Source: a virus (taxonomy: Duplodnaviria; Caudoviricetes). From it: a stretch of 64,000 nt of DNA. The DNA lies in IMG/VR virus record IMGVR_UViG_3300020450_000008. The stretch is one strand, 5' to 3'. Position 1 is the first letter of the stretch; every line of letters begins with the position of its first letter. The notes beneath the pieces were generated by a model. It made no database searches. It saw nothing but the letters and a program-made list of their open reading frames with translations, and was not told where the DNA came from. Shown here piece after piece: positions 30,301 to 63,619 of the stretch. A program made the translations under genes and the position numbers.

Positions 30301-31239
30301 TATTTTACAAATGAAAGAGTTGATGACCGTGTAGGCTCACTAATAACAGCAGGCGTTAATGTTGCAACAACGTATGACGATGCAGCTGGAACACTTGAAA
30401 TAAGAGTCCCATTTGAAAACATTGATGATAGAGTTGGAACTATTTTAACTGCCGGTAACGGTATTAATATTAATTATGACGATCCAAATGCCACAATTAC
30501 AATAACTAACACACTTAATACAAGTGATTTTGCAGATTCAGCAACCGTAATCAGTTTGATCGATTCAGCTTTTGGACAGTTAAATGTTGGAGTTATTGAT
30601 ACTGATAACGTATTTCTTCAAGGTGCGACAGATCACGCAGGTATTGCTTTTGGTAGTACTTCTGTTCTTCCTTTTAGAAACGGCAATTATTCAAACGCTA
30701 CTACTGACTTAGGTCACTCTGTTGCCGGCGCTTTCAAAGACGCTTACTTATCGGGTGGACTATACGTTGGTGGAACTGGGTCGGCAAACTATTTAGATGA
30801 CTATGAAGAAGGAACATGGACTCCTACGATTGTTGGTACTTCTAATACTCCTACCTTTTATAATCGAGTTGGAAGATACACAAAAATAGGTAGGTTAGTA
30901 ACACTTCAATGTTTTTTGCAAACTAATGTAGCTCCAACATATTCAAATGCTAATACTCAATTTAAAATATCAGGAGTTCCTTTTAATCTTCTAGCTATTG
31001 GTTATACAGGTGCTCAAGGAACTGTAAATTCACAAGCATTAAGATATGTTTCTGGTGACAACGACCAAAATGCTGGTGCTAGTACTGGTGGTGGTCATCT
31101 AACTTGTGGTATACATGCTGATGAACAATTAATATTTCATGTTACTGGTAGTGGTCAATCAAGAGGTTTTGTTGAAAATAGTGGCACAACTTCAGGATTT
31201 ATTCTTGAAGCAACAATAAGTTATTTTACAGATGCGTAG
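27352..31239 (+). CDS. Long fibre-like virion protein with DS-rich repeat stalk and C-terminal receptor-binding-type domain
   Basis: About 47 Asp-Ser dipeptides in YIQAR/RDSGF repeats; two GQT-type modules; C-terminal YLDDYEEGTWTP...GRYTKIGRLV fibre-tip motif. Confidence 0.75.
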   Translation: MADILKYRLPDGTEAEVTSNTSSVTLPFTTPHLDFTVILDQLAVNPGEVRGWYVSSSTYFSPTLSGNYNYRLELIEGQTRTVTIQTVDAKNTSDLNSGRFSSFRDNFSITVTRGSAPADSSADSTTQSFLTFPDSDARLTIEGNQIVLTDSNFQFNISALDVIDSAYIQARQAFSTFDSNEVVALINANTPTLIENSVPLDSSTVSAIINNQVDSNYVSGRQIIGSDSASIITIVNSIVDSAYVSLRDRVQDSGFVTGIVDAAYVQARDRIRDSGFVTNVIDSNYIISILDDSSLTIDGNGLNNGVTISDGSIVMRTGTGSVAAIDMYCEVNNIHRVRLKAPSHSNFSGNPDVILPNTSGTIALTSDITGTVTASYIQANQTKFLDSSLATQLIDASYIQARQLFDSDTLRDSGFITGIITPEYIQARQMFDSDTLRDSGFITGIIDSDYINNRTASGTDSTAVLAMITTTITPGYIQARQLFDSDTKVDSAFVTSIVDAAYVQARDRIRDSGFVTDILLPNEFAKDSAVKLYFAGTKKFETTDSGVDVQGDLTLVQNNARIKLGGLILRDSNGALAIKDSAGIATSITFSNQFDSSTALSLIDSAYVQARQVDLQRESGFIIGIVDTAYVQARQSFGAAGDSTSTIAIIQSVVNNSYVQARQTNFDFLDSGEVINLIDSNYVQARQVDLQRDSGFVTGIITPEYIQARQLFDSDTDTLRDSGFITGIIDSDYINNRTSSGVDSATVLSIVDSDYISAVAGGFASPRFKDFKYIATNAQTTFTGNDANSKTLALKDSNFAVYLNGIRLLRSDYTSTNTSVVLDSAASTGDEIVISAMTADFRGSADLIDSAYIQERIGGVISPIFTNFKFIADGNQTEFFGNDANGNGLTFDSHNFNVLLNGIQLDRSDYHADAGANKIFLVSGATASDELVVNTLKSTITSTLQAVKDIVTPEYIQARQLFDSDTDTNLSSTDSLSEGSTNLYFTNERVDDRVGSLITAGVNVATTYDDAAGTLEIRVPFENIDDRVGTILTAGNGININYDDPNATITITNTLNTSDFADSATVISLIDSAFGQLNVGVIDTDNVFLQGATDHAGIAFGSTSVLPFRNGNYSNATTDLGHSVAGAFKDAYLSGGLYVGGTGSANYLDDYEEGTWTPTIVGTSNTPTFYNRVGRYTKIGRLVTLQCFLQTNVAPTYSNANTQFKISGVPFNLLAIGYTGAQGTVNSQALRYVSGDNDQNAGASTGGGHLTCGIHADEQLIFHVTGSGQSRGFVENSGTTSGFILEATISYFTDA
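28130..30260 (+). repeat. Dispersed near-identical coding repeats inside the 27352 fibre gene
   Basis: caagcaagagatagaataagagactctggttttgtaac at ~28147 and ~28861; a ~115-nt block at ~28602-28716 recurs at ~29443-29564; ccagaatatattcaagcaag at ~28615, ~29458 and ~30208. Confidence 0.8.
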
Positions 31240-37460: not shown

Positions 37461-37468
37461 TATAAATA
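37461..37468 (+). promoter_or_regulatory. T4-type late promoter TATAAATA
   Basis: Exact consensus just after the gp23 terminator. Confidence 0.85.
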
Positions 37469-39003: not shown

Positions 39004-39452
39004 TGATGTTAAATTTAGAAGACATACTTAATAAATGGGAAGAAGATAGTAAAATAAATCAAACAGATCTTAGTCATGCATCTATTGAAACAGCAATGGC
39101 ACATTCAAGATATTTGAAATTATTATCGCTAGGAAAATTACAACTTAAAAAATCTCAATTGAATCAAAAAAGTTTATTAAAAGATAAGTGGTTATATTAT
39201 AATAATAAAATGTCAAAAGAAGAAATAGATGAAAAAGGTTGGGATTATGATCCTTTTAAAGGATTAAAGGTTATGAAAACTGACATGAATTACTATTATG
39301 ATTCAGATATAGATATACAAAAGAGCGAAGAAAAAATAGCATATCATAAAACTATAGTTGAAACTCTTCAGGAAATAGTAGAAACTTTAAGATGGCGTCA
39401 TCAAAGTATTAGTAATATTATAAAATGGAAGCAATTTGAATCAGGCGGATAA
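39003..39452 (+). CDS. uvsY: Recombination mediator UvsY
   Basis: WEEDSKI, KWLYY, WDYDPF, LRWRHQSISNIIKWKQF motifs; directly before uvsW. Confidence 0.9.
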   Translation: MMLNLEDILNKWEEDSKINQTDLSHASIETAMAHSRYLKLLSLGKLQLKKSQLNQKSLLKDKWLYYNNKMSKEEIDEKGWDYDPFKGLKVMKTDMNYYYDSDIDIQKSEEKIAYHKTIVETLQEIVETLRWRHQSISNIIKWKQFESGG

Positions 39453-40950
39453 AATAATAATACAGAAAAAGTCTCATAGTTCTATGTTTTTAGGCTGTGA
39501 TTTTGGAGTTGCTGCCGAACTTAGTGATTTCTTTTCCTTTTTTGTTCCAGGATATAAGTACATGCCTTTATACCGTAACAGAGTATGGGACGGTAAAGTA
39601 AGGTTGTTTAATGCTCAAACAAAAGAGCTACCATGTGGTTTATTGCCATACGTTCAAGAATTTGCTGAAAAAAGAAGATATGCTATAGATTATGAGAATA
39701 GCGACTATGGTCCTCCAGAATCTTTTAATGACGTAGATCCTAATGAAATAATGGACTTTATAAAAGATTTAGATCTTCATAATGGAGGACAACCTATTGA
39801 AATAAGAGATTATCAGTTTAACGCGATATGTGAAAGTATTAAAAGAAAAAGAGCCATAATGTTATCACCCACTGGTTCTGGTAAGTCACTGATAATATAT
39901 GTATTGATGAGGTGGTATTTAGAAAACTTTGATGAAAAAGTACTAATAATAGTTCCAACAACTTCTTTAGTAGAACAGATGTTTGGAGATTTTAAAGACT
40001 ATTCATCTAATGATAATTATTGGAATGCTGATGAGGAATGCCATGTGATATATTCTGGAAAACCTAAAACAAGTATACAAGAAAGAATCTTTATTAGTAC
40101 TTGGCAATCTATATACAAACTACCGTACACTTGGTTTGAGCAGTTTGGTATAACCTTTGGCGATGAATGCCATGGCTTTAAATCAAAATCTTTAACTAAT
40201 ATAATGAATAAGGCAAGACTTTCTGAGTATAGGTTTGGAACGACTGGGACTCTGGACGGCACACAAACTCATCAATTAGTTTTAGAAGGATTATTTGGAA
40301 AGGTTATGAAAGTAACCTCAACAAAAGACTTGCAAGATAAAGACACATTAGCTCCTTTAGATATATTTTTATTAGAGTTGAATTACCCTGATGAAGTAAG
40401 AAAAATGTGCACGGGCTTAAAATATCAAGATGAAGTTGACTTTATCGTAAAATATCAGAAGAGAAATAATTTCATACGTAATTTAGCTCTAGATCAAAAA
40501 GGTAATACATTAGTTCTATTTCAATTTGTCGAGAAGCACGGAAAGGTACTATTTGACTTGATAAATAGTAAGGCTAATGAGAAAAGAAAAGTTTTCTTTG
40601 TTAGTGGTGCTACCGAAACATCTGATAGAGAAGCTATTAGAAAAATAACGGAGGGACAAAAAGATGCTATCATCGTGGCTAGCTTGGGTACTTTTTCCAC
40701 TGGGATTAATATTCGTAATCTCCACAACATCATCTTTGCATCGCCGTCTAAAAGCCAGATTCGAGTTTTACAATCGATTGGAAGAGGACTCCGTAAAACA
40801 GAAGATGGAAGAACCACCAAACTCTACGACATTGCGGATAATCTCCAGCATAAATCGAGAAAAAATTACGCGCTCTCTCATGCAGAGGAAAGATTAAAAA
40901 TTTATAGAAAAGAAAAATTTAATTACAAGGTTGTTAAAGTTAAATTATGA
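39436..40950 (+). CDS. uvsW: DNA helicase UvsW
   Basis: SPTGSGKS, IVPTTSLVEQM, GDECH, GTTGTLDG, QSIGRGLR SF2 helicase motifs. Confidence 0.96.
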   Translation: MNQADKIIIQKKSHSSMFLGCDFGVAAELSDFFSFFVPGYKYMPLYRNRVWDGKVRLFNAQTKELPCGLLPYVQEFAEKRRYAIDYENSDYGPPESFNDVDPNEIMDFIKDLDLHNGGQPIEIRDYQFNAICESIKRKRAIMLSPTGSGKSLIIYVLMRWYLENFDEKVLIIVPTTSLVEQMFGDFKDYSSNDNYWNADEECHVIYSGKPKTSIQERIFISTWQSIYKLPYTWFEQFGITFGDECHGFKSKSLTNIMNKARLSEYRFGTTGTLDGTQTHQLVLEGLFGKVMKVTSTKDLQDKDTLAPLDIFLLELNYPDEVRKMCTGLKYQDEVDFIVKYQKRNNFIRNLALDQKGNTLVLFQFVEKHGKVLFDLINSKANEKRKVFFVSGATETSDREAIRKITEGQKDAIIVASLGTFSTGINIRNLHNIIFASPSKSQIRVLQSIGRGLRKTEDGRTTKLYDIADNLQHKSRKNYALSHAEERLKIYRKEKFNYKVVKVKL

Positions 40951-42311
40951 TCGTCTTAGGACTTAGTGAAGGATACCATGACGCAGGAGCTTGTCTTATC
41001 GAAGATGGAGAGATACTTAGCGCCACTCATGCAGAAAGATTATCACGTAAAAAGAATGATAGATGGCTACATCCAAAACAAAAGTATCTTGAAAATCTAG
41101 CTCATAAAGTTTCTTTCTTTGAAAAGAATTGGCTAAAATTTTCTAGGCAATGGTATTCTGGCCAAAAAGAACTGGCAGACTTTAGATTAAGTAAATATGA
41201 GCACTCCCACTATCATCATGAGTCCCATGCCGCTGCTGGATTTTATACATCTAAATTTGATAAGTGTAACATATTAGTTATAGATGCGATAGGTGAATGG
41301 GATACTGTTTCTGTCTGGGAAGGCTGGATGCATAGAAACAAGCCTAAAATGAAAAAAGTATGGAGTAGAAAATATCCATATTCAATAGGGTTATTTTATT
41401 CAGCTATAACAAAGGCTGTAGGTTTAAAACCACAAGAAGATGAATATATTACTATGGGAATGGCCGCTTATGGAGAGCCTAAATACTACGATGAATATAA
41501 AGAAATATTAGATAATCATAATTGCCATAAGGGTATGCCAAAAGTTTTAAAAGGTTACCCCAATGACATAGCAGCATCAGCGCAACTTTTAGTAGAAGAG
41601 GAAATAATTAAAATAGTTAAAAATCATTGCCATAGTAAAAATTTAGTAATGATGGGTGGAGTTGCTTTAAATTGTGTTGCTAATAGTAGAGTCGCTAAGT
41701 TAGGGAAAAAAATATGGATAATGCCAAATCCTGGAGACTGCGGTTCTGCTCTTGGCGCAGCAGCTTTGACATACGGAAAGAAAATTAATTGGGAACATCC
41801 ATATCTTGGAACAGAAATAAAAGGCAAAATAAATGTTAAAGAAGTTGTGCGCCATCTTCTTAAATACAAATACTGTGGTATTGCTAATGGTTGTGCAGAG
41901 TTTGGTCCTCGCGCTCTTGGTAATAGAAGCCTTATCGCAGATCCTAGAGAAGATATTAAAGACACTGTAAATAAAATTAAACGTAGACAACCATTTAGAC
42001 CGTTTGCGCCCGCGATTTTGGAAGAATACGTAGATGAATATTTTGAAGGCCCGATGAATGAATATATGCAATTTGTAGCTATGGCTAAGCATGATCATTA
42101 TTCTGTTACGCATATTGATGGCTCAGCAAGAGTTCAAATTGTAAAAAGAGATTGTAAGTCAATAATAAGACCATTATTAGAAAGTTGGTATGACAAAACT
42201 AAATGTCCGATGCTACTTAATACGAGCCTAAATATAAAAGGACAACCTATGGTTGACAACGAAAATGATAAACAACAATTCATGAAAGAGTATAAAGTAA
42301 AGGTTTTTTAA
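40947..42311 (+). CDS. Carbamoyltransferase (NodU/CmcH/TobZ family)
   Basis: GYHDAGACL, HHESHAAAG, VIDAIGEW, EDEYITMGMAAYG, GGVALNCVAN, EFGPRALGNRS, RRQPFRPFAP, LLNTSLN motifs. Confidence 0.93.
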   Translation: MIVLGLSEGYHDAGACLIEDGEILSATHAERLSRKKNDRWLHPKQKYLENLAHKVSFFEKNWLKFSRQWYSGQKELADFRLSKYEHSHYHHESHAAAGFYTSKFDKCNILVIDAIGEWDTVSVWEGWMHRNKPKMKKVWSRKYPYSIGLFYSAITKAVGLKPQEDEYITMGMAAYGEPKYYDEYKEILDNHNCHKGMPKVLKGYPNDIAASAQLLVEEEIIKIVKNHCHSKNLVMMGGVALNCVANSRVAKLGKKIWIMPNPGDCGSALGAAALTYGKKINWEHPYLGTEIKGKINVKEVVRHLLKYKYCGIANGCAEFGPRALGNRSLIADPREDIKDTVNKIKRRQPFRPFAPAILEEYVDEYFEGPMNEYMQFVAMAKHDHYSVTHIDGSARVQIVKRDCKSIIRPLLESWYDKTKCPMLLNTSLNIKGQPMVDNENDKQQFMKEYKVKVF

Positions 42312-42785
42312 ATGGAAGATATAAAACAATTAAAGCTTAGCGATGGTGAAGAAATAATAGCAGAGATTCTAGAAGAAGTCGATGACGAACTTTTGGTCCG
42401 CTTACCATTAAGAATAATAAAGGTAGATTTATCTATTGATCGCACTCTCTTTACATTTAAATCTTATATGACATACTCTGAATTTACAGATCAAATAGTT
42501 TCAATAAATTTGTACCACATTATTGCTATTTCAATTCCTCACGAAGATTTATTAGAACAATACGACCGGGCGAAGGAAAAAATTAAAGAATATAAATTAG
42601 AATCTCGTGATCTCAGTATTTACGATACCACAGATTCAGCATTAAAAGACGCATTTAGTACGGTAAAAACAAAAATAAAGAGTGATTTAAAAGACTTTAG
42701 TAAGATTCCTGGAGAAGAGATGGATTCAGCATCATCTAATGTAATATATGTACCGTTTTCTACAGATAAAGACAAGATGCATTAA
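42312..42785 (+). CDS. Conserved T4-like hypothetical protein (Sm-like beta fold)
   Basis: KQLKLSDGEEIIAEI...LPLRI N-terminus is typical of the gene preceding gp55 in marine T4-like phages. Confidence 0.55.
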   Translation: MEDIKQLKLSDGEEIIAEILEEVDDELLVRLPLRIIKVDLSIDRTLFTFKSYMTYSEFTDQIVSINLYHIIAISIPHEDLLEQYDRAKEKIKEYKLESRDLSIYDTTDSALKDAFSTVKTKIKSDLKDFSKIPGEEMDSASSNVIYVPFSTDKDKMH

Positions 42786-42933: not shown

Positions 42934-43524
42934 ATGGCGAAACGCAGTAAAAATGTTCATTACGTAAACAATCAAGAGTTTTCTCAAGCTGTTGTTAGTT
43001 ATGTAGGAACTGTAAGAGAAGCAAAAGACGCAAATAAACCAATCCCTGTAGTTACAGATTATGTGGCTACATGTTTTTTAAGAATAGCAGAAAATCTTTC
43101 TCATAAGTCTAACTTTATAAGATACACTTACAGAGAAGAAATGGTTATGGATGCTGTAGAAAACTGCTTGAAAGCTATTGAAAACTACGATATCAATGCT
43201 TCAACTAGAACAGGCAAACCAAATGCTTTTGCGTATTTTACACAAATTATCTGGTACGCGTTTTTGAGAAGGATTTCAAAAGAAAAGAAACAACAAGATA
43301 TTAAAGAAAAGTATCTTTCACAATCAGGTATAGAAGCCTTCCTTCAAGCAGAAGGTGGCGATATGTCTACATCAGTTGTTACTAATTTTGTTGATACACT
43401 TAAAGATAGAATCGATAAAGTTAAGAATTATGATGCTGATTTAAAAGCCTTTGCTCAAAAACAAAAAACTAGAAAAAAGAGAGCGGTAAACGTTGACTCA
43501 GATTTAACTGATTTTTTAAAGTAG
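42934..43524 (+). CDS. gp55: Late transcription sigma factor gp55
   Basis: HYVNNQEF, NFIRYTYREEMVMDAVENC, NAFAYFTQIIWYAFLRRI motifs. Confidence 0.96.
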   Translation: MAKRSKNVHYVNNQEFSQAVVSYVGTVREAKDANKPIPVVTDYVATCFLRIAENLSHKSNFIRYTYREEMVMDAVENCLKAIENYDINASTRTGKPNAFAYFTQIIWYAFLRRISKEKKQQDIKEKYLSQSGIEAFLQAEGGDMSTSVVTNFVDTLKDRIDKVKNYDADLKAFAQKQKTRKKRAVNVDSDLTDFLK

Positions 43525-48797: not shown

Positions 48798-49853
48798 GTG
48801 CGTATAGAAAATGAACAAAAATTAGACTATGGTAATGTTCTTATAAGACCTAAACGATCAACTGCGGGTAGTAGAAAAGAAGTTGAACTTAAAAGAAAAT
48901 TTTCATTTAAATATTCAAATGTTAATGAAGAGTATGATTATACTGGTATTCCTATTATAGCAAGCAATATGGATGGAGTAGGCACTTTTAAAATGGCAGA
49001 TGCTTTAGCTAAACTAGGCTTGATGACTTGTTTAGTAAAAACATATTCAGTAACTGATTTAGTTAATTACTATGATAATAGATTAGATGATTTTGAATTA
49101 AGAACTAATAACGTTATATATTCTATGGGAATAAGTAATAATGATTATGAAAAGTTTGAAAAGGTTTATGAACAGACTGGTAATAATATTAAGTATGTTT
49201 GTATAGACGTTGCAAATGGATATAGTGAAAGATTTTTAAACTTTTGTAAGAAATTTAGAGACACATATCCAGACTTAGTACTTATGGCTGGTAATGTAGT
49301 AACAGGTGAAATGACAGAGGAGTTAATATTAAATGGTACAGATATTGTCAAAGTTGGGATTGGTCCGGGTTCTGTTTGCACGACACGGATTAAAACTGGT
49401 GTTGGTTACCCTCAGCTTAGTGCTGTTATTGAATGCGCTGATGCTGCACATGGTCTTGGAGGACACATCATTGCTGATGGAGGATGTAATTCGCCAGGAG
49501 ATGTTGCTAAAGCTTTTGCAGGAGGAGCTGACTTCGTAATGCTTGGAGGAATGTTAGCAGGACATGACGAAGGTGGCGGTGTTATCAGCACTATCGAAAA
49601 GACTGTTCAATTTTATGGAATGAGTTCTGAAACAGCAAATGAAAAACATTTTGGTGGTCTTAATGACTATAGGGCAGCCGAAGGAAAAGTTGTTGAAATT
49701 CCGTACAAAGGAAAGGTTACTAATACCGTTCAAGAAATACTTGGAGGAATCAGATCAGCTTGCACTTACACTGGAGCAATAAAATTAAAACAATTAAGTA
49801 AATGTACAACTTTTATTAGATGTCATGATACACACAATAGAGTTTACGAATAA
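48798..49853 (+). CDS. guaC: GMP reductase (GTG start)
   Basis: [64 protein letters not shown] motifs; no CBS domains. Confidence 0.9.
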
Positions 49854-49876: not shown

Positions 49877-50470
49877 ATGAAACATGCAAGAAATATAATT
49901 TATGATTTTGAAACATTATCTCAAGAGCCTAATGGTGTAGTTACATGCTGCGCTCTTTTAATTTTTGATGAAAAGAAGTTTGACGTCAATAATGATCCAT
50001 ACACGTTTAAAGAACTTGTCGATTCTGCTAAAGTAATTAAACTTGATGTAGAGGATCAAGTAAAAAATTATAAGAGAATAATAACACAAGAAACTTTGGA
50101 TTGGTGGAAATCACAAGGATCTGAAGCTCAGAAATGGATAACACCTTCTGACGAAGATCAAAAGATCTCTAAATTGTACGATTGGTTTTGGGAAAATAAT
50201 CCTACAGATATAAAAAGCTTTTACACCAGAGGAAATACGTTTGATCCTATATTTCTTCAATCACTAATGGAAGCTACAGACAGACCAATGCCATATAATT
50301 GGTGGCAAATAAGAGATACTCGATCTTACATAGAAGGTTTAGCTTGGGGATCAGAATTAATACATGATTATATACCTCCAGGTTGCGAAGGATTTACAAA
50401 ACATGATCCAAAACATGATATAGCGTTAGACGTAATGAGAATGCAAACAATAGCAAGAGCAATAGTATGA
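49877..50470 (+). CDS. dexA: 3'-5' exonuclease, DexA-like (DEDDh)
   Basis: IYDFETL, RGNTFDPIFL, WQIRDTRSYI, HDPKHDIALD motifs. Confidence 0.8.
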   Translation: MKHARNIIYDFETLSQEPNGVVTCCALLIFDEKKFDVNNDPYTFKELVDSAKVIKLDVEDQVKNYKRIITQETLDWWKSQGSEAQKWITPSDEDQKISKLYDWFWENNPTDIKSFYTRGNTFDPIFLQSLMEATDRPMPYNWWQIRDTRSYIEGLAWGSELIHDYIPPGCEGFTKHDPKHDIALDVMRMQTIARAIV

Positions 50471-51219
50471 AACTAACTTTGATAGGCTATGGCTTTGTTG
50501 GAAAAGCAATGCATCATGTTTTAAACAAGTGGCATGATATTAAAATTGTAGATCCAGAATATACAATTCAAGAAATAGAAAATGATTCAGATGGATATAT
50601 TGTTTGTGTACCAACACCAAGTTCGCATGATGGTTCATGTGACTTTTCAATAGTTGAAGATGTAGTAAAACAATGTCCAAAAGATAAACCAATTTTAATA
50701 AAGAGCACTATTAGTTTGGAAGGATGGAGAAACTTACATCAGTATGAAAAGAGTTTAAATTTTAGTCCAGAATTTTTAACAGCAGCAAATTCTATATTAG
50801 ATGCCGAAAGTAAAGAGCATATGTTATTAGGTGGTCCAGATGCTGATTTTTGGAGCGACGTATTTTTAATGTATAAAAAAGTCTTAGCTCCAATTGAAGA
50901 GTTGATATTAACTAAGTATATAATAAATTGTTTTCTTGCGTCAAAGGTTTCTTTCTTTAACGATATATATAAATTATGCAAAAACACCAATATTGATTAT
51001 GATAAAGTATGTGAACTTGTACAGACTGATGATAGGATAGGATCAAGTCATATGCAAGTACCAGGACCAGACGGTCAAATGGGATTTGGTGGTATGTGCT
51101 TTCCTAAAGATACAAAAGCATTAATTCATACTGGAATGCATTTTAGAAGTCCATTGACTTTGTTAAATGAAGTGGTGGCTTTAAACAATTTAGTAAGAGA
51201 AGACGATGAATCACTTTGA
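50467..51219 (+). CDS. UDP-glucose/GDP-mannose dehydrogenase family protein
   Basis: GYGFVG Rossmann motif, VCVPTP, IKST, FSPEFL, KY..NCFLASKVSFFN, GFGGMCFPKD; lacks the C-terminal UDP-binding domain. Confidence 0.9.
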   Translation: MKLTLIGYGFVGKAMHHVLNKWHDIKIVDPEYTIQEIENDSDGYIVCVPTPSSHDGSCDFSIVEDVVKQCPKDKPILIKSTISLEGWRNLHQYEKSLNFSPEFLTAANSILDAESKEHMLLGGPDADFWSDVFLMYKKVLAPIEELILTKYIINCFLASKVSFFNDIYKLCKNTNIDYDKVCELVQTDDRIGSSHMQVPGPDGQMGFGGMCFPKDTKALIHTGMHFRSPLTLLNEVVALNNLVREDDESL

Positions 51220-53006: not shown

Positions 53007-53465
53007 ATGACTGGTACTTTTATGTTCCCTAGGAACGCTTTTTTAGGTTTCGACCATCTTTTTGACGAACTCGAAAAAATCACAAATCACGCAAATGACT
53101 CATACCCACCTCACAATGTAATTAAACATGGTGATCACAAGTATGATATAGAATTAGCGATTGCTGGATTCTCTAAGGACGATATTAATATCGAACTAAA
53201 AGAACACGTATTAACGATTAAAGGTGATAGTGGTAAAGAGAAAGATAAAAAATATGTCCACAAAGGCATATCAGGTCGAAAGTTCTATAAATCGTTCAGG
53301 TTATCAGAGTACGCAGAAGTCAGTGGTGCAGATCTAACGGATGGAATCTTAACTGTCAGTATCGAAGTTATTCTACCGAAAGAGAAGCGACCCCAACTTA
53401 TTGAAATAGGAACGGGGAGAAAAACCAATGGCAGTAGTGCTCAATTACTTAATGAAGATCTTTAA
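53007..53465 (+). CDS. Small heat-shock protein Hsp20 (IbpA-like)
   Basis: FLGFDHLFD, YPPHNV, ELAIAGF, HKGISGRKF, DGILTV alpha-crystallin motifs. Confidence 0.95.
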   Translation: MTGTFMFPRNAFLGFDHLFDELEKITNHANDSYPPHNVIKHGDHKYDIELAIAGFSKDDINIELKEHVLTIKGDSGKEKDKKYVHKGISGRKFYKSFRLSEYAEVSGADLTDGILTVSIEVILPKEKRPQLIEIGTGRKTNGSSAQLLNEDL

Positions 53466-53640: not shown

Positions 53641-53916
53641 ATGTCAGCTATAGCAACAGCTTTTTTAGAAAGAACCTGTCATATATGCGATGCCGTAAAT
53701 CTTTTTGTATATAAGTTATACATAAAAGCAAAGTGGAGTAAAGAACTTCGTAGAAACTATAATGCGTTTGAAAACCTACTTAGTAAATACGATAGTGAAG
53801 CAGGTTATCATTTAACAAGAATGAACGAAGCAACTAACGAAAAATATCAAAACAAATTAAATGCAACTAAACTAAAACCTTTTAAGTGGGGTTGGGAAGA
53901 TAATGGAGATGACTAA
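53641..53916 (+). CDS. Hypothetical protein
   Basis: RBS gagga; 91-aa ORF coupled to the next gene. Confidence 0.55.
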   Translation: MSAIATAFLERTCHICDAVNLFVYKLYIKAKWSKELRRNYNAFENLLSKYDSEAGYHLTRMNEATNEKYQNKLNATKLKPFKWGWEDNGDD

Positions 53917-54352
53917 TATGAAAAACTTTTATTTAATTCTGATAACAATGTGTTTTATGGGTGGTATGTTTTTATCTGCGAATGCTGCAGATATGTCAAT
54001 AGATATGCTGAACAAACAAGGTAAAGAAAAAATGTTATACAGTGTTAACGTAGCTGAAGTTGACGTTGGAGACACTATTACCTGGCAGCCAAAAGATAAA
54101 GGACATAACGTACAGTTTATCGCTGGTCCTGATGGATGGAAACTTCCAAAGAAGTCTAAGATGAATGCTGTAGTTGAAATTACTTTTGATACTCCAGGTA
54201 TGTATCTTTATCAGTGTACACCACACGCAACAATGGGCATGATCGGCGTTGTAATAGTTGGTGGTGACGTATCTAATAAAGATGCTATTGCTAAAGTTAA
54301 AATTAGAGGCAAAAGTAAAAAGAAACTGAAGAAAATACTGAAAGATATTTAA
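53903..54352 (+). CDS. Pseudoazurin-like blue copper protein with signal peptide (start probably 53917)
   Basis: Type-1 Cu ligands intact: GHNVQF and YQCTPHATMGM; GDTITW; hydrophobic leader ending ANA-A. Confidence 0.9.
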   Translation: MEMTNMKNFYLILITMCFMGGMFLSANAADMSIDMLNKQGKEKMLYSVNVAEVDVGDTITWQPKDKGHNVQFIAGPDGWKLPKKSKMNAVVEITFDTPGMYLYQCTPHATMGMIGVVIVGGDVSNKDAIAKVKIRGKSKKKLKKILKDI

Positions 54353-55078: not shown

Positions 55079-57610
55079 ATGAAATCTTTTTATACTTCCG
55101 TAAATCGCTATGGCAATTCTATACTTTATCGTGGTTACAACGAAAATGGAGCTGCCATAGCTCAAAGATATAAATTTTCACCTACACTCTATACACCATC
55201 AAAGAAACCTACCAAGTTTAAAGGCTTTGATAGTGGATATGTTGCACCATTAAGTTTTCCAACTATGAGGGATGCTAAAGAATGGCTGGAACAATATCAA
55301 GAGATGGAAGGTGTAAATATATTTGGCACAAAAAATTATATACATCAGTTTATTACAGAAAAATTTCCTGATAAAATAGACTTTGAGCCAAATGCTATCA
55401 ATGTTGTTAACTTCGATATAGAAGTTGCATCTGATTCTGGATTTCCAGTTCCGGAACAAGCGGCATATCCAATCACAGCAATCACAGTTAAATCAAGTCA
55501 ATCTTCAGTATATCAAGTCTGGGGTTGTGGCGAATACAGCTCAGAAAAATGTGAAATAGAACTATATGGAAATCTGATTCAATATCACAAGTGTAAGAAT
55601 GAAACAGAATTACTTGCTAAGTTTCTTGGTTATTGGATAAAAAATTATCCTGATGTTATAACAGGTTGGAATACTCGATTCTTTGATATTCCATACATTG
55701 TAAATCGTATAAAAAATGTTGGTGGTGAAGCAGCTGCTAATAGATTATCTCCTTGGAAATTAGTAAGTGAAAGAAACCTAATGATTGGCGGCCGTATGAA
55801 TTATGGCTATGACATAACTGGCATTCAACAAGCAGACTATTTAGAATTATTTAGAAAGTTTGGATATTCATATGGTCCACAAGAATCATATCGTCTTGAT
55901 CATATCGGTCATGTTGTACTTGGTGAACGCAAACTTTCTTTTGAAGAACATGGTAGCTTATTAAATCTGTATAAAAATGATCATCAAAAATTTATTGATT
56001 ATAATATTAAAGATGTTCAATTAGTAGATCGAATCGATCAGAAGATGGGACTTATTAATCTAGTATTTACTATGGCTTATAGAGCTGGTGTTAATGTTAC
56101 AGATACATTTGGCACTACAGCAATATGGGAATCAATCATTTATCGTAGATTACAGAAAAATAATATCATAAGCCCTATTGATCAAATTAAAAAAGTCATT
56201 TATCAAAATAAATCAAATGCAAATGTTATTGAAGGTGGCTATGTTAAGGAACCTCAAGTTGGTGCACATGACTGGGTGGTATCATTTGATCTAAACTCTC
56301 TATATCCAAACATAATAGTTCAGTCTAATATATCACCCGAAACTTTAATTAAAGATAAATCATTCGGTCATTACGAACAAGATGTCCAACACTATCTTAA
56401 CAGTAAAGATAAAACGTCAAAAGAATATTCTATATGTGCAAGTGGTGTTCCTTTCTCTCATGAAAAACAAGGTATCATACCAGAGTTAATTGTTGAATAT
56501 TATGCAGAACGTACACAAATTAAAAAGAAAATGTTAGAAGCTAAATCTGCATATGAAAAAGAAAAGTCTCGCCAACTTGAAGCAGAAATTAATCAACTTG
56601 AAAATAATCAAATGGCCATCAAGATCTTATTGAACTCTCTTTATGGCGCATTGGCCAATAAGTACTTTAAGTATTTTGATAATGCTCTTGCCGAAAGTGT
56701 TACACTTACTGGTCAGCTTTCGATTAAATGGGCAGAAAAAGCTATCAATCAAGAGATGAATAAAGTTCTTAAGACTGGTAATAAAGACTATGTTATAGCA
56801 ATCGATACCGATTCTTTATACATTAACTTTGGTCCACTTGTGCAAAAGCTAAATCCAAAAGATCCAGTTGCGGCTATTGATAAACTATGCCAAACACATT
56901 TTGAAAAGAAACTTGCTGAGGCTTATGATAAACTATTTAATAACTTAAATGGTTATACACCTAGAATGGAAATGGGTAGGGAGGTTATTGCTGATCGTGG
57001 AATCTGGACAGCTAAGAAAAGATATATTCTTAACGTACATAACTCAGAAGGCGTACAATATGCTGAACCTAAACTTAAGATTATGGGTATTGAAGCTATC
57101 AAATCTTCTACACCAGAAGTTGTTCGTAATAAATTTAAAGAGGCATTCAAGATTATAGTGTCAGGTGATGAGTTAAAAACTCGTCAGTTTATTAATGATT
57201 TTAAAGAAGAGTTTAAACTACTTTCTCCAGAGATGGTATCATTTCCAAGAAGTGTACAAAATGTCGGTAAGTGGAAAGATAGAATACACATTTATTCTAA
57301 AGGTACTCCAATTCATGTTCGTGGCGCGCTTTTATATAATCATCATGTATCAGATCTTTTCCTCGATAAAAAATATTCTCAAATCAGCTCAGGCGATAAG
57401 ATAAAATTTTCTTATCTCAGATTACCAAATCCTATCAAAGAAAATGTTATATCGTTTCCTGACTTCTTACCACAAGAATTCAAGCTTCATAAATATATCG
57501 ATTATGATACTCAATTTGATAAAACATTTATCGAGCCACTCAATCCAATACTTGAAGCGGTTGGGTGGTCAGTAAAAGAACAAGCAACCTTAGAGGAGTT
57601 TTTTGGATGA
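55079..57610 (+). CDS. gp43: Family B DNA polymerase gp43
   Basis: Exo motifs FDIEV, TGWNTRFFD; Pol motifs SFDLNSLYP, KILLNSLYGA, IDTDS, KKRY; uninterrupted. Confidence 0.98.
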   Translation: MKSFYTSVNRYGNSILYRGYNENGAAIAQRYKFSPTLYTPSKKPTKFKGFDSGYVAPLSFPTMRDAKEWLEQYQEMEGVNIFGTKNYIHQFITEKFPDKIDFEPNAINVVNFDIEVASDSGFPVPEQAAYPITAITVKSSQSSVYQVWGCGEYSSEKCEIELYGNLIQYHKCKNETELLAKFLGYWIKNYPDVITGWNTRFFDIPYIVNRIKNVGGEAAANRLSPWKLVSERNLMIGGRMNYGYDITGIQQADYLELFRKFGYSYGPQESYRLDHIGHVVLGERKLSFEEHGSLLNLYKNDHQKFIDYNIKDVQLVDRIDQKMGLINLVFTMAYRAGVNVTDTFGTTAIWESIIYRRLQKNNIISPIDQIKKVIYQNKSNANVIEGGYVKEPQVGAHDWVVSFDLNSLYPNIIVQSNISPETLIKDKSFGHYEQDVQHYLNSKDKTSKEYSICASGVPFSHEKQGIIPELIVEYYAERTQIKKKMLEAKSAYEKEKSRQLEAEINQLENNQMAIKILLNSLYGALANKYFKYFDNALAESVTLTGQLSIKWAEKAINQEMNKVLKTGNKDYVIAIDTDSLYINFGPLVQKLNPKDPVAAIDKLCQTHFEKKLAEAYDKLFNNLNGYTPRMEMGREVIADRGIWTAKKRYILNVHNSEGVQYAEPKLKIMGIEAIKSSTPEVVRNKFKEAFKIIVSGDELKTRQFINDFKEEFKLLSPEMVSFPRSVQNVGKWKDRIHIYSKGTPIHVRGALLYNHHVSDLFLDKKYSQISSGDKIKFSYLRLPNPIKENVISFPDFLPQEFKLHKYIDYDTQFDKTFIEPLNPILEAVGWSVKEQATLEEFFG

Positions 57611-58338
57611 CAAATTATGTTTTCGATGTGGATGGAACACTTACACGTAGTAGGGGAAGAATAAATGAAGGATTTAGAAGATTCTTCTTAAAATTTATTC
57701 AAGATCATAAAGTATATCTTGTTACTGGAAGTGACTACTATAAGACAGTAGAACAAGTTAGTCGTGAGGTCACTGAATCAGTTGAAAAGGTATTTAATTG
57801 TTCTGGGAATAGTGTTTGGAGAAAAGGTTTAAATATTCAAAAAACGGATTGGAGTATTCCTATGGAAGTAAAGGACTGGCTTAAAAAGAAACTTAATGAA
57901 AGTAAGTTTGATTTAAGAACTGGAAATCATATAGAAGAGCGACCAGGACTTGTAAACTTTAGTACCATAGGTAGAGGCTGCAACTTAGAACAAAGACAAT
58001 CGTATGTAAAGTTTGATAGCATACATGAAGAAAGAGAAAAGATTACAAAAGAATTTAATGATAAATTTAAAGATATTACTGCTCAGGTTGCTGGAGAAAC
58101 TGGGATAGATATTATACCAGCTGGAAAAGATAAAAGACAAGTAGCATTTATGATTGATGGACCTATAACATTTTTTGGTGATAAAATGAAATATGGAGGA
58201 AATGATTATCCATTGAAATTTGCCATAGAAGGTCGTGCTGATTCAGGTGCTATAGAAGTTAAAGATTGGGAACAAACGCATAGATACTTACAACAAATAC
58301 AAATTTTCAGTTTACAAGAAGCTGTCGGTATGGTATAA
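57565..58338 (+). CDS. HAD-IIB phosphatase/phosphomannomutase-like protein (start probably 57608)
   Basis: FDVDGTL, LVTGSD, IEERPGLVNFS..GR, FFGDKM..GGNDY motifs of eukaryote-type PMM. Confidence 0.8.
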   Translation: MVSKRTSNLRGVFWMTNYVFDVDGTLTRSRGRINEGFRRFFLKFIQDHKVYLVTGSDYYKTVEQVSREVTESVEKVFNCSGNSVWRKGLNIQKTDWSIPMEVKDWLKKKLNESKFDLRTGNHIEERPGLVNFSTIGRGCNLEQRQSYVKFDSIHEEREKITKEFNDKFKDITAQVAGETGIDIIPAGKDKRQVAFMIDGPITFFGDKMKYGGNDYPLKFAIEGRADSGAIEVKDWEQTHRYLQQIQIFSLQEAVGMV

Positions 58339-58359: not shown

Positions 58360-58773
58360 ATGAGTACACATTGGTCAAAAGATATTAGTGATATGCATCA
58401 AAAGTTTGGTGTTAATAAATGGTTTACTAAAAATAAATCAAACAAAGAGATTATGAAAAAATATCTTATGTTTCGAATGCTTATGTTAAATGAAGAACTA
58501 CATGAAACGATGCAAGCTGTAAATAGTGAAAACCCAGAAGAAATAGTAGATGGTTTGATAGACATATGTGTATTTGCAATAGGTACTCTCAATGTTTTAG
58601 AAGTTGATGCTGATAAAGCTTGGGATGCCATACATAATGCAAACATGGCAAAAGAACCTGGCGTAAAAGCTGGTAGACCTAATCCTTTCGGTATGCCAGA
58701 TCTATTAAAGCCAGAAGGTTGGAAAGGACCTGATCATAGCGACAATCATGGAAGTATCAGCGACATTCTTTAA
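58360..58773 (+). CDS. All-alpha NTP pyrophosphohydrolase (MazG-like), candidate dCTPase
   Basis: EELHE...EIVDGLID metal-binding motif; ANMAK, KPEGW. Confidence 0.8.
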   Translation: MSTHWSKDISDMHQKFGVNKWFTKNKSNKEIMKKYLMFRMLMLNEELHETMQAVNSENPEEIVDGLIDICVFAIGTLNVLEVDADKAWDAIHNANMAKEPGVKAGRPNPFGMPDLLKPEGWKGPDHSDNHGSISDIL

Positions 58774-60104: not shown

Positions 60105-60337
60105 TGGCCGGAGCAATCAATACACCTTTAAGACAACTTATTATGGATTGGAGTGCATGCCAATTGTTAGAGAAAGATCCTGATAATATTGTTCTTAAAA
60201 AACTTAGATCTTGGGAGCATCCTGAAACAATAGAACTAAATAAACTATTAACACAATTTGAAAAAGATGGAAAATATCCAGAACACTATAATTTAGACTG
60301 GGGTTCAATTAATTATGAAGAGTTTATAAAAGAATGA
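60104..60337 (+). CDS. Hypothetical protein
   Basis: Translationally coupled on both sides (TAATG, ATGA). Confidence 0.55.
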   Translation: MAGAINTPLRQLIMDWSACQLLEKDPDNIVLKKLRSWEHPETIELNKLLTQFEKDGKYPEHYNLDWGSINYEEFIKE

Positions 60338-60681
60338 AAGCTGGAAAGATATGGGGTCAAACAGAACTAATCCATGCAAATGGTGTTCTAGAGTTTCATC
60401 GCATTGAATATAAAAAAGGCTTTAAATGTTCAGAGCATGAACATCAATTTAAATGGAATGGATTCTATGTTGAGTCCGGACAAATGCTTGTAAGAGTCTG
60501 GCAAGACGATCAAGAAGGATTAGTTGATGAAACTATATTAAATCCTGGAGACTTTACGCAAGTGAAACCTGGCAAGATTCATCAGTTCGAAGGACTTGAA
60601 GATGGAATTGCATTTGAACTTTATTGGGCTGAATTCAATCACAACGATATAGTTCGAAGAACTGTAGGAACAAAAGTATGA
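60334..60681 (+). CDS. Cupin-fold protein (sugar isomerase/epimerase-like)
   Basis: GKIWG, CSEHEHQFKWNGFYVESG, VKPGKIHQF cupin metal motifs. Confidence 0.8.
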   Translation: MKAGKIWGQTELIHANGVLEFHRIEYKKGFKCSEHEHQFKWNGFYVESGQMLVRVWQDDQEGLVDETILNPGDFTQVKPGKIHQFEGLEDGIAFELYWAEFNHNDIVRRTVGTKV

Positions 60682-60869
60682 TATATGGTTGGATATTGAT
60701 AATGATAACTCTACATCCTGATGGATCATTAGACGGTGGAGCAATAGATTATTTTAACACTTACCCAGAGTGTTTTGAAGTAATGAAAGAAATGTCGGTT
60801 ACAGGTCAAGGAACAGGTTATACCTGTGTAGATGACTATGTAGATATGAGTGGAGATATAGAACAGTGA
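60678..60869 (+). CDS. Small hypothetical protein
   Basis: Coupled overlaps; hydrophobic N-terminus; two Cys residues. Confidence 0.5.
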   Translation: MIYGWILIMITLHPDGSLDGGAIDYFNTYPECFEVMKEMSVTGQGTGYTCVDDYVDMSGDIEQ

Positions 60870-61282
60870 GAATTGGATTTACCTGCAGTACCTTTGATTT
60901 ACTTCATGCAGGCCATGTCATGATGTTAAGAGAAGCGAAAGCCCAATGTGATTATTTAATATGCGGACTGCAGGTAGATCCAAGTATAGACAGGCCAGAA
61001 AAGAATTCTCCTATACAATCTATTGTAGAAAGAGAAGCTCAATTATCAGCAATAAAATATGTTGATGAGGTGATTATTTATTGTACAGAAGATGATTTAT
61101 GTGATATAATTAATATGTACCCAATTGATATTAGAATATTAGGCGAAGAGTATAGAGATAGAGACTTTACTGGTAAAGATGAATGTAAGAAAAGAGGTAT
61201 TCAACTTTATTTCAATAAAAGAGAACATAGGTTTAGTACTTCAGATTTAAGGAAAAGAGTGTGCGAAAAGACGACATTATAG
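60866..61282 (+). CDS. Cytidylyltransferase (TagD/glycerol-3-phosphate CT-like; GTG start)
   Basis: STFDLLHAGH (HxGH), YVDEV, GEEY, RFSTSDLR motifs. Confidence 0.9.
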   Translation: MRIGFTCSTFDLLHAGHVMMLREAKAQCDYLICGLQVDPSIDRPEKNSPIQSIVEREAQLSAIKYVDEVIIYCTEDDLCDIINMYPIDIRILGEEYRDRDFTGKDECKKRGIQLYFNKREHRFSTSDLRKRVCEKTTL

Positions 61283-61470
61283 ATCTAGGCATAGACTTAG
61301 GCGAACCAGACTTTACAACTAAAAATGATAGGCCAGGATTTATTAGTAGCAGTGGTTGGCCAGTTCGTAGAGAAATAACAAAGTTAAATGACAATATGAA
61401 AATTATGGTCAAGCAAATGAGTAAATTAAAAAAACAAATAAGTAAACTAGAGAAGAAACTAAATGGATAA
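61261..61470 (+). CDS. Small hypothetical protein with C-terminal coiled coil
   Basis: Fills the gap between the cytidylyltransferase and gp42-like genes, with overlaps at both ends. Confidence 0.45.
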   Translation: MRKDDIIDLGIDLGEPDFTTKNDRPGFISSSGWPVRREITKLNDNMKIMVKQMSKLKKQISKLEKKLNG

Positions 61471-62170
61471 TATTGTGGAAAATTTAACATGGGCAAAAGT
61501 AAAACATATTCGTCAGCATTTTAGAGATGAATTAAACAAAGAAGTATTTACTATTGATAAAACTGGTCAAAAGACTATTGAAATGATTGGTGCATCTTTT
61601 GTTGCTGATGAATCAGCAATATTTGGTACTCCTAATCGAGAATATATTGATGCAGAAATAGATTGGTACAATAGTAGATCTACAAATATAAATGAAATAT
61701 TTGGAATCACAAAAGCACCACCACAAGCTTGGCAATATTCAGCTAATAAGTTTGGTGAGATCAACTCTAATTATGGCCACTTAATCTTTAGTGAAAAATT
61801 TTATAATCAATATTTACATGTTGTAGAAGAATTAATAAATAATCCTGATAGTCGTAGAGCCGCAATGATTTACAATCGTCCTTCAATATGGCTTGAATAT
61901 AATGAAGACGGTAAGAATGATTTTATCTGTACTAATGCTGTTACATACTATATACGTAATAGAAGATTAGATGCTGTAGTTCAAATGAGATCTAACGATG
62001 TGGTATATGGCTATAAAAATGATTATGCCTGGCAACAATACGTTATGAAACAACTTATTGAAGATATAAATGTTCAAAGACCCGATGATGATCAAGTCTT
62101 TAAAGGTTTTATGCATTGGCAGGTTCAAAACTTACATGTGTATGAAAGGCACTTTGATTTAGTACAATGA
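61463..62170 (+). CDS. gp42: dCMP hydroxymethylase (T4 gp42-like, thymidylate synthase fold)
   Basis: DKTGQKTIEMIGASFVADE, EINSNYG, NPDSRR, DFICTN (catalytic Cys), MRSNDVVYGYKNDYAWQ with Asp at the dCMP-specificity position (Asn in thymidylate synthase); closely follows the T4 gp42 sequence as I recall it. Confidence 0.9.
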   Translation: MDNIVENLTWAKVKHIRQHFRDELNKEVFTIDKTGQKTIEMIGASFVADESAIFGTPNREYIDAEIDWYNSRSTNINEIFGITKAPPQAWQYSANKFGEINSNYGHLIFSEKFYNQYLHVVEELINNPDSRRAAMIYNRPSIWLEYNEDGKNDFICTNAVTYYIRNRRLDAVVQMRSNDVVYGYKNDYAWQQYVMKQLIEDINVQRPDDDQVFKGFMHWQVQNLHVYERHFDLVQ

Positions 62171-62715
62171 GTCAATTATTTAAAGATCCAAAAAAACCAG
62201 CATTATTTGCAGATATGAATGATCCTGTTCTTAACGCGACATATAAAACAATGAATATTATTGGAGTCGATCCTGAAAAGAAATGGGATGTAAGATATAT
62301 TGAACTAGCCTACAAAGTAAGTGAATGGTCAAAAGATCCATCAACAAAGATAGGATGTGTGGTTGTAGGAAATAAGGGACAGGTATTGACTCAAGGATAC
62401 AACGGTTTTCCTCGTGGTATTGATGACTCAAATGAAAGACTTACAGATAGAGAAACTAAATTGAAATACGTTGTTCATGGAGAAATGAACGCGATATATA
62501 ATGCTTGTTATAATGGAATATCTCTTGAAGGAAGTACCATGTATGTTACTGGTCTTCCAACATGCTCTGATTGCGCCAAGGGTGTAATACAAGTAGGTGT
62601 TAAAAGAGTTGTCTGGCCTAAAGAACTTGAAAATGTTGAAGACAGATGGAAAGAATCTGTTAAATTAACTATGTCTATGTTCGATGAAGCTGGAGTAGAG
62701 TATGAGTTCATCTAA
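62167..62715 (+). CDS. cd: dCMP deaminase
   Basis: SKDPSTKIGCV, GYNGFPRG, HGEMNA, PTCSDC zinc motifs. Confidence 0.92.
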   Translation: MSQLFKDPKKPALFADMNDPVLNATYKTMNIIGVDPEKKWDVRYIELAYKVSEWSKDPSTKIGCVVVGNKGQVLTQGYNGFPRGIDDSNERLTDRETKLKYVVHGEMNAIYNACYNGISLEGSTMYVTGLPTCSDCAKGVIQVGVKRVVWPKELENVEDRWKESVKLTMSMFDEAGVEYEFI

Positions 62716-63619
62716 TGCTCAAACAAATTTAAGTCGACTTAAATTAGCAGCAGATAAACCTAAAACTGTTGTAGCTTCTGATTGGAAAAGGTATTATAGT
62801 CGGTATGTTGACAGGGCTTTCGCAAGAACAATCAATATTGATACATCTACACGTTGCTTGATGCAATGTCCTTTTTGCTCTCGCCAAAATTTTGCAACTG
62901 GTAAACTGCACATCAAAACAAATAGAACGTTTTATGGAGATTTAACTCCAGAAAATGCTTTACAAATGGCTGATGCATTTGATCGTATAAGTTTTTGTGG
63001 TCAAATATCAGATCCAATATTTCATAAAAATTTATTCTCTATATTTGAAGCCTTAGATCAAGGTGCTGCTATTAGAACACTTGAGTTTCATACAGTTGCC
63101 TCTGGAAAAAAAATGGCTTGGTGGGAAAGAGTTTTCTCATATATGGAGAATGCAAAATATAAAACTGATTTTATCATAGGTATTGATGGAATTGATCAGA
63201 AAACAGCTTCTCATAGAATAGGACAAAACTTTGAAGAAGCATGGGAAGTCTTACGATATTTTGCTGATAATAAAAGAGATAATATAGATATCACCTGGCA
63301 GTTCATACCCTTTTTATATAATGAAGATGAAGTGTTAACTGCGGCAGAAACTGCTGTTTCATTAGGGATAAATTTATTACTTCTCAAATCATCTCGTCAC
63401 GTTGGAGAGTATAAGACAAATACTGGAGATAAAAAATATGCTATAGGAGCTGATTTATACACTCAAGAAGAATTTGAAAAAAAATTTCAAGGTCATTTAC
63501 CATTAGCTCCAACGAAATCATTTTTAAAATCAAATAATGGTATAACAAGTTTTAATGATGGATATATAAAAACAAAGGAAGATATAAAAGAATTAGAAAG
63601 AGTTTTAAATGAATCCTAA
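62702..63619 (+). CDS. Radical SAM protein
   Basis: CLMQCPFC (CxxxCxxC), SFCGQISDP, IGIDG, WQFIPF.YNE motifs. Confidence 0.88.
   Translation: MSSSNAQTNLSRLKLAADKPKTVVASDWKRYYSRYVDRAFARTINIDTSTRCLMQCPFCSRQNFATGKLHIKTNRTFYGDLTPENALQMADAFDRISFCGQISDPIFHKNLFSIFEALDQGAAIRTLEFHTVASGKKMAWWERVFSYMENAKYKTDFIIGIDGIDQKTASHRIGQNFEEAWEVLRYFADNKRDNIDITWQFIPFLYNEDEVLTAAETAVSLGINLLLLKSSRHVGEYKTNTGDKKYAIGADLYTQEEFEKKFQGHLPLAPTKSFLKSNNGITSFNDGYIKTKEDIKELERVLNES

Follow-up and report, generated by a model that had tools for sequence, protein, structure and literature searches.

The window analyzed here is a 64,000-nucleotide stretch of an uncultured marine T4-like myovirus (IMG/VR record IMGVR_UViG_3300020450_000008), in which the + strand carries every long open reading frame (ORF). 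It encodes a compact two-domain O-carbamoyltransferase (CT) at 40947..42311 (+), and the 454-residue product is called P0001. P0001 appears to be an auxiliary enzyme that carbamoylates a glycan or a small molecule, a target other than DNA, and we give this reading a probability of about 0.5. The initial annotation had proposed that the enzyme caps 5-hydroxymethylcytosine (hmC), or else that it decorates a glycan; the glycan alternative fits the evidence better, and capping of hmC is poorly supported. P0001 falls outside the clade of validated hmC carbamoyltransferases (100/100 support) and lacks the Cys/Thr pair of that clade. The SGNH-like, radical SAM and sugar-nucleotide genes that accompany its relatives, together with a Streptomyces member in a nonribosomal peptide synthetase (NRPS) cluster, point to a sugar-type or small-molecule acceptor.

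Fold and catalytic residues of P0001

The gene is intact, as the initial annotation had it, with no internal stops. The N-terminal Kae1-like domain scores 128.9 bits against Carbam_trans_N (PF02543, cut-off 24) and the C-terminal YrdC-like domain 151.1 bits against Carbam_trans_C (PF16861, cut-off 27). P0001 also matches phrog_1601 (E 7.5e-85), annotated as a 'Nol-like carbamoyltransferase'. Sullivan et al. 2010 (PMC3037559) tabulate this kind of sporadic auxiliary gene in cyanophages. From an alignment of 34 sequences, AlphaFold gave a model with a pLDDT of 90 and a pTM of 0.90. Its top structures in Foldseek are GdmN, NovN, TobZ and VtdB (TM 0.82-0.85, E 2e-35 to 1e-31), with which P0001 has 22-26% identity.

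The metal site of TobZ is His/His/Asp/Asp (H-x-x-x-H, an Asp, and G-D). In P0001 the site corresponds to H90, H94, D113 and D264, which are invariant across the 34 sequences, drawn from two distant clades; also invariant there are E318, G320, R322, N326, R347, H389, R395 and N425-T426-S427-N429. The blocks EFGPRALGNRS, RRQPFRPFAP, HIDGSARVQ and LLNTSLN, which are the carbamoyl-phosphate/ATP motifs, align with NovN and VtdB. The metal-site residues and the EFGPRALGNRS motif are common to P0001 and all four structural matches, but P0001 is shorter than these by about 110-230 residues, and Trp408 of TobZ is replaced by Ile. Judging from sequence and model, P0001 is probably a genuine and active O-carbamoyltransferase of the NodU/TobZ family.

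Relationship to the validated hmC carbamoyltransferases

The literature premise of the initial annotation is sound. The hmC carbamoyltransferase found with MetaGPA (Yang et al., eLife 2021) needs ATP and carbamoyl phosphate, and co-occurs with PF00303 (thymidylate synthase fold, TS-fold), PF01503, PF00383 and PF14437; the assayed enzyme differs at the positions of TobZ W408, G421 and R423 (PMC8670742). P0001 has the superfamily, the two-domain plan and the catalytic residues in common with this enzyme, and the TS-fold, PRA-PH and dCMP deaminase genes of such genomes are also found in the window. The assayed enzyme is larger, at 63 kDa (relatives mostly 490-580 residues) versus 454 residues.

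For comparison, 12 IMG/VR loci were fetched with a short degenerate motif from the printed sequence of the assayed enzyme. A TS-like gene lies within about 1-2 kb of the CT in 10 of them, which confirms the fetched clade as the hmC type. All 12 proteins read ...EFGPRALCNTT..., with Cys/Thr at TobZ positions 421/423 like the assayed enzyme. P0001 is 22-26% identical to them and has the generic Gly325/Arg327 there. At the TobZ 408 position P0001 has Ile312, the hmC clade Ile or Thr, and the Streptomyces homologue Val (the chain ranges of TobZ served to verify the numbering). A residue other than Trp at 408 is not specific to hmC enzymes, since the homologue in the Streptomyces NRPS cluster also has one.

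By sequence comparison, P0001 is not a member of the validated hmC clade. In a maximum-likelihood (ML) tree of the family, which contains no AbmE, SxtI, NodU or CmcH sequence, ten of the hmC relatives form a 100/100 clade without P0001. The longest branch (100/100), at the deepest split of the tree, separates this clade from every marine T4-like phage CT, P0001 included. P0001 groups with the Streptomyces enzyme (59% identity) and with phage CTs from complete genomes lacking a TS-fold gene, so the phylogenetic check proposed in the initial annotation went largely against capping. A TS-fold gene within about 3 kb of the CT, as in the hmC clade, is also absent here, where the distance is 19.2 kb.

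Neighborhoods of the P0001 clade

Relatives of P0001 occur in 181 IMG/VR contigs, of which the best 80, with CTs 55-96% identical to P0001, were examined; one of them, L006, is the window's own species. P0001 has at least 8000 matches in a large protein collection, and the best 120 of these, leaving out a 97%-identical truncated entry of 320 residues, are 60-91% identical and 441-468 residues long. The P0001 clade in the ML tree consists of enzymes of about 450 residues. A C48C1-type branch also lies inside this group, on a long branch and with weaker support (85/97 and 82/96).

A family of proteins of about 270 residues, in one to six copies, is encoded directly 3' of the CT in 62 of the 73 relatives that have downstream sequence. 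It has the SGNH-hydrolase blocks G-x-S-x-T-D, G-x-G-N and D-x-H-P and resembles SGNH/GDSL clusters of the ESM Atlas, with no match in Pfam or PHROG. In pelagiphage Mosig and Ralstonia phage RsoM2USA, too, a profile hidden Markov model (HMM) of the family finds it as a neighbor of the CT. The copies form tandem arrays of up to six per locus (L077:11272-15403, L072:11344-13718 and many others), five of them directly after the CT in L077, and are only about 17-31% identical to one another. Radical SAM genes lie just 5' of the CT in 21 of the 80 loci. The closest syntenic relative (CT 72% and gp23 87% identical) has the order uvsW, radical SAM, CT, three SGNH-like ORFs, a 144-residue ORF and gp55. 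A small partner protein ending in PFIY was found in 0 of 74 loci and not in the window.

Sugar-nucleotide genes are a further part of this company, and the window has homologues of several of them away from its own CT. The cytidylyltransferase-like nucleotidyltransferase at 60866..61282 (+) has a homologue that immediately precedes the CT at five other loci, along with homologues of the phosphomannomutase-like HAD enzyme at 57565..58338 (+) and of the UDP-glucose/GDP-mannose dehydrogenase-like protein at 50467..51219 (+). Homologues of all three flank the CT in L011, L012, L014 and L020, where the phosphomannomutase-like gene borders the CT cassette, and in 17 of the 80 loci a homologue of the dehydrogenase-like gene is no more than 10 kb from the CT.

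The CTs of cultured marine phages that belong to phrog_1601, from S-SSM7 (gp153), P-SSM2 (gp308), HTVC008M and Mosig, are 26-32% identical to P0001. P0001 differs from them in two ways: it comes from an hmC-making phage, and its compact clade is distinct, very abundant and usually partnered by the SGNH-like gene. The P-SSM2 CT is located between tail-fibre genes, with a nucleotidyltransferase, a carbohydrate kinase, a phosphoheptose isomerase and an epimerase. The Mosig CT has an ArnB-like aminotransferase, an epimerase and MoaA-like radical SAM enzymes as neighbors, and the HTVC008M CT a UDP-glucose dehydrogenase; methyltransferases are also among the neighbors in the latter two phages. PF00303 searches found no TS-fold gene in the complete C48C1 genome or in HTVC008M, Mosig, Melnitz or P-SSM2.

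The closest cellular relative was found by a scan of species genomes. The CT of Streptomyces parvus JCM 4069 (L187:6001-7314) is chromosomal and 59% identical to P0001 over its full length, which is unusually high between a marine phage and an actinomycete. In the ML tree it is nested among phage members (90/90). It resembles P0001 in its compact size and C-terminal end, but lies on a bacterial chromosome in a secondary-metabolite setting, in DNA of 64% GC with a C-A-T-C NRPS, a type II thioesterase and a second NRPS around it. The P0001 clade thus includes a secondary-metabolite setting. Relatives at 46-48% identity are present in 4 of 150 other sampled Streptomyces genomes. AbmE, to which the N4-carbamoylation of albomycin's cytidine moiety is ascribed (review PMC9032320), is a precedent for annotated carbamoyltransferases that act on a cytosine nucleoside, and is set beside P0001 by description only; with its two NRPS genes and type II thioesterase, the S. 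parvus locus is unlike the abm cluster.

Proposed insertion site of the gene

The CT appears to be an auxiliary gene inserted between uvsW and gp55. The local order is gp23, tail tube, an unknown ORF, uvsY, uvsW, CT, a 157-residue ORF, gp55, gp47, gp46, gp45 and gp44. The major capsid protein gp23 is at most 64% identical to those of catalogued phages, the best being C48C1, Melnitz and HTVC008M. The uvsW helicase gene (39436..40950, +; Pfam UvsW_N, ResIII, DEAD and Helicase_C) overlaps the CT by four nucleotides, the TGA stop and the CT start sharing ATGA, so that the coupling described in the initial annotation is real. The same layout is found in S-SSM7, with uvsW (again a 4-nt overlap), a CT of 30% identity, a 'methylamine utilization protein' ORF, gp55, gp47 and gp46, and the complete S-SSM7 genome has no PF00303 gene despite the same uvsW/gp55 site. 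The coupling to uvsW is therefore uninformative about hmC, and reflects an insertion hot spot.

The 157-residue ORF (42312..42785, +; phrog_527/471) is conserved and begins at the first base past the CT stop. It has the position of the S-SSM7 'methylamine utilization protein' ORF, to which it is likened by position only. Next comes the gene for the late sigma factor gp55 (42934..43524, +), whose C-terminal peptide is DLTDFLK. The T4 late-promoter consensus TATAAATA has nine sites in the window versus 10.7 expected by chance, all on the + strand and within the first 52 kb, and several just 5' of structural genes. The site nearest upstream of the CT is at 37461-37468. Their count is not above chance, and the TATAAATA sites are only suggestive of late co-transcription.

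Proposed function

The chemistry and the acceptor class that we infer for P0001 follow from its fold, conserved residues, clade and neighborhoods. If P0001 works like TobZ and GdmN, carbamoyl phosphate and ATP would be converted to carbamoyl-AMP in the YrdC-like domain at the C-terminus. The Kae1-like domain at the N-terminus, which has the His-His-Asp-Asp metal site, would then hand the carbamoyl group to the hydroxyl of an acceptor. The likeliest acceptor would be a sugar-type or other small-molecule hydroxyl, for example on a phage-made nucleotide-sugar or on a glycan of the virion or host envelope. The 5-hydroxymethyl group of cytosine would be a less likely acceptor.

Several observations weigh against a non-DNA acceptor. 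No glycosyltransferase or SGNH partner is found in the 64-kb window. The CT stands alone in this phage and its closest kin (85-96% identity), and an HMM of the SGNH-like family (102 members) found no member in the six-frame translation of the window, so the CT+SGNH module does not occur here. The window and its nearest kin carry a stripped-down, CT-only cassette. Because the CT stands alone, the logic of relatives with SGNH-like and radical SAM partners may not transfer to the window. In two relatives whose CT also stands alone, gp42 is 3-8 kb away from it, and a cytosine-type TS-fold gene is present in four of the five long contigs that carry the P0001 clade. The genome itself makes hmC, and no other hmC-capping enzyme is seen in the window. 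Hydroxymethylcytosine is also a chemically plausible acceptor, since members of the family can carbamoylate primary alcohols.

Genes for hydroxymethylcytosine in the window

The gp42-like gene that the initial annotation placed about 20 kb from the CT is real, at 61463..62170 (+), 19.2 kb downstream (PDB 1b49, T4 gp42, E 1e-70). Aligned to 1b49 and to the D179N mutant 6l18, the protein keeps the catalytic Cys and the equivalent of the specificity residue Asp179, and the blocks FICTN, RSND and KNDYAWQ align. Some gp42 homologues make 5-hydroxy-dCMP and have Asn at the position of E. coli ThyA D169 (PMC13326640, 2026, from which the diagnostic residues were taken). The window protein has Asp at the ThyA L143, D169 and N177 positions, and since Asp is kept at D169 and present at L143, it is predicted to be a dCMP hydroxymethylase. 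It is preceded by the MazG/PRA-PH-type nucleotide pyrophosphohydrolase gene at 58360..58773 (+), a candidate dCTPase, by a small cupin gene at 60334..60681 (+) and by the cytidylyltransferase-like gene, with which the cupin travels. It is followed by the dCMP deaminase gene (cd) at 62167..62715 (+) and a radical SAM gene at 62702..63619 (+), whose product has up to 34% identity to those encoded by radical SAM genes preceding the CT in relatives. In the window, as in six relatives, the cytidylyltransferase-like gene is directly 5' of the TS-like gene, sometimes with the small cupin before it.

No T4-type glucosyltransferase is recognizable in the window, as the initial annotation had noted. Pfam scans of 50 ORFs found no member of the alpha- or beta-glucosyltransferase (AGT, BGT) families; these scans left out four giant structural ORFs (15-4529, 4567-11043, 11324-14566 and 27352-31239). 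A tblastn search of the window with the AGT-like protein of relative L079 also gave no match. A search for the AGT family PF11440 in 14 related contigs, including long CT-bearing ones, gave no matches, and control genomes likewise gave none.

Association of the clade with hmC genes

Among the five long contigs carrying the P0001 clade, G002, G004 and G005 have gp42. In the complete 146-kb genome G001, the TS position of the same cupin/cytidylyltransferase/TS arrangement is taken by a divergent TS-fold gene, which has Asp at the two diagnostic positions. No TS-fold gene was found in G003, which has the CT and is 64% complete. The G001 gene (L087:1105-1893; PF00303, 31 bits; Asp at D169 and N177) has an asparagine-synthase-like amidotransferase gene directly 3' of it (L087:1893-3188), and this pair suggests a cytosine adduct of another kind.

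None of the seven gp23-sampled and cultured relatives is TS-positive. The co-occurrence of CT and TS-fold genes is largely inherited, since the TS-positive genomes form one lineage on the gp23 tree. With this and with gp42 contigs that have no CT, the association at genome level, which at first seemed significant, was rejected as independent support. These gp42-bearing contigs, G051, G052 and G053, are without the P0001 CT clade. G051 and G052 encode proteins of about 300 residues that correspond only to the Kae1-like N-terminal half of a CT, with 38-42% identity (G051:C1:97990-98856, G052:C1:18087-18827). PF00303 is found in 3 of 40 shorter contigs, which are 10-35% complete and too fragmentary to use. 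Across the 80 relatives, a gp42 homologue is within 10 kb of the CT in only two.

Alternative acceptors

The compact clade may have been recruited to DNA hypermodification independently of the hmC clade, either to cap hmC or to carbamoylate a sugar or cyclitol attached to it. This is possible, if somewhat doubtful, and its two forms are considered in turn.

That the CT serves cytosine hypermodification by carbamoylating a sugar, cyclitol or other group on hmC-DNA, or the nucleotide-activated precursor of that group, appears unlikely. TobZ, NovN and NodU do act on sugar hydroxyls, and the arrangement of the cytidylyltransferase-like gene, before the TS-like gene in some genomes and before the CT in others, would fit such a pathway. 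The same gene is, however, present in G046 and G048, which lack a TS-fold gene, and a homologue lies beside the CT of P-SSM2, which lacks one too. The radical SAM gene of the window and the next ORF follow gp42-cd and are 26-34% identical to the pair after the CT in L036, but the same CT/SGNH/radical-SAM cassette is found in Mosig, which is also TS-less. In L079, a single block of same-strand genes includes the CT, gp42 and cd along with genes for an epimerase, a cupin, a C5-methylase-like protein and an AGT-like DNA glucosyltransferase. Against such a pathway, no gene of the inositol-phosphate-synthase family (PF01658) is above the cut-off in 17 related records, and no AGT match was obtained in the long CT-bearing contigs, in a search without a positive control. 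The CT also has no clamp-type tail.

The L079 glucosyltransferase gene (L079:2984-4249, IMGVR_UViG_3300012953_005164; PF11440, 102.8 bits) is just after gp42-cd and encodes a T4 AGT-like alpha-glucosyltransferase. Its tail, ...STLEEFFA, resembles that of the window gp43, ...ATLEEFFG, and the neighboring C5-methylase-like protein is also tailed. Such clamp-peptide-like ends (for example T-L-E-E-F-F) are found on the gp43, gp55, AGT-like and C5-methylase-like proteins of relatives. The CTs of the clade, that of Streptomyces among them, all stop at the terminal strand typical of the family, ...Y-x-V-x-V-F. A clamp-docking tail on the CT was considered and rejected, as sequence comparison found none in any clade member.

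Direct conversion of hmC, in DNA or as 5hmdCTP, to 5-carbamoyloxymethylcytosine, in place of T4-type glucosylation, is quite improbable. It would agree with the true dCMP hydroxymethylase (Asp at L143, D169 and, as N177D, at N177) and the genes for dCMP deaminase and the MazG-like protein, which belong to the Pfam families found alongside the characterized enzyme (PMC8670742). It would also agree with the lack of any AGT or BGT found in the window, with the TS-fold gene bearing the specificity Asp in four of five long contigs, and with Ile at TobZ position 408 as in the characterized enzyme. The distance from that enzyme's clade (22-26% identity across the longest, 100/100 branch) and Gly325/Arg327, where its 12 members and the assayed enzyme have Cys/Thr, argue against it, and the non-Trp residue at 408 recurs in the Streptomyces NRPS-cluster homologue. 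The genomic evidence points the same way: the TS-like gene is 19 kb away, compared with about 1-2 kb in 10 of the 12 clade loci, and gp42 is near the CT in only the 2 of 80 relatives. S-SSM7 has the same uvsW-CT-ORF-gp55 layout with no TS-fold gene, G003, 64% complete, has the CT with none found, and G051, G052 and G053 have gp42 without this CT clade, while the TS-positive genomes are of one gp23 lineage.

Least probable is carbamoylation of a hydroxyl or amine of an amino acid or peptide, such as hydroxylated residues of virion proteins. In its favor, the closest cellular homologue has NRPS and thioesterase genes on its flanks, the CTs of relatives have radical SAM/SPASM and Asp/Asn beta-hydroxylase-like genes nearby, and the S-SSM5 CT is beside 2OG oxygenases and a leprecan-like gene and near a fibre gene. 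On the other side, no hydroxylase or peptide substrate was identified in the window, and sugar-pathway neighbors are commoner than protein-modifying ones. The Streptomyces enzyme might itself act on a sugar, or on the nucleoside portion of a hybrid product.

Other auxiliary genes of the window

The replication module contains further auxiliary genes, which encode an IMPDH/GMP-reductase family protein (48798-49853), Hsp20 (53007-53465), a plastocyanin/azurin-like copper protein (53903-54352) and a DoxX membrane protein (54368-54790). A subtilase-family peptidase is encoded at 19731-21311 (PF00082, 93.7 bits). It lies between an ORF of 834 residues (17224-19728), which is 3' of the gp15-like tail sheath stabiliser gene and has no Pfam match, and a small terminase-like ORF.

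Implications

Carbamoyl-hmC DNA cannot be predicted from the mere presence of a CT and gp42 in one genome. Validated hmC carbamoyltransferases are told from look-alikes by their clade, by the Cys/Thr signature and by a closely linked TS-like gene. If P0001 did cap hmC, abundant ocean phages would have a DNA base so far associated with a single enzyme, of sewage origin; the evidence makes this unlikely. Independent recruitment of the compact clade to DNA hypermodification would mean that ocean phages carry a carbamoylated cytosine adduct which has yet to be described from them. Read as an auxiliary O-carbamoyltransferase of glycans or small molecules, P0001 represents an uncharacterized and very abundant phage clade, with at least 8000 matches, that usually has SGNH-like and radical SAM genes as partners and that has a close relative in a Streptomyces NRPS cluster.

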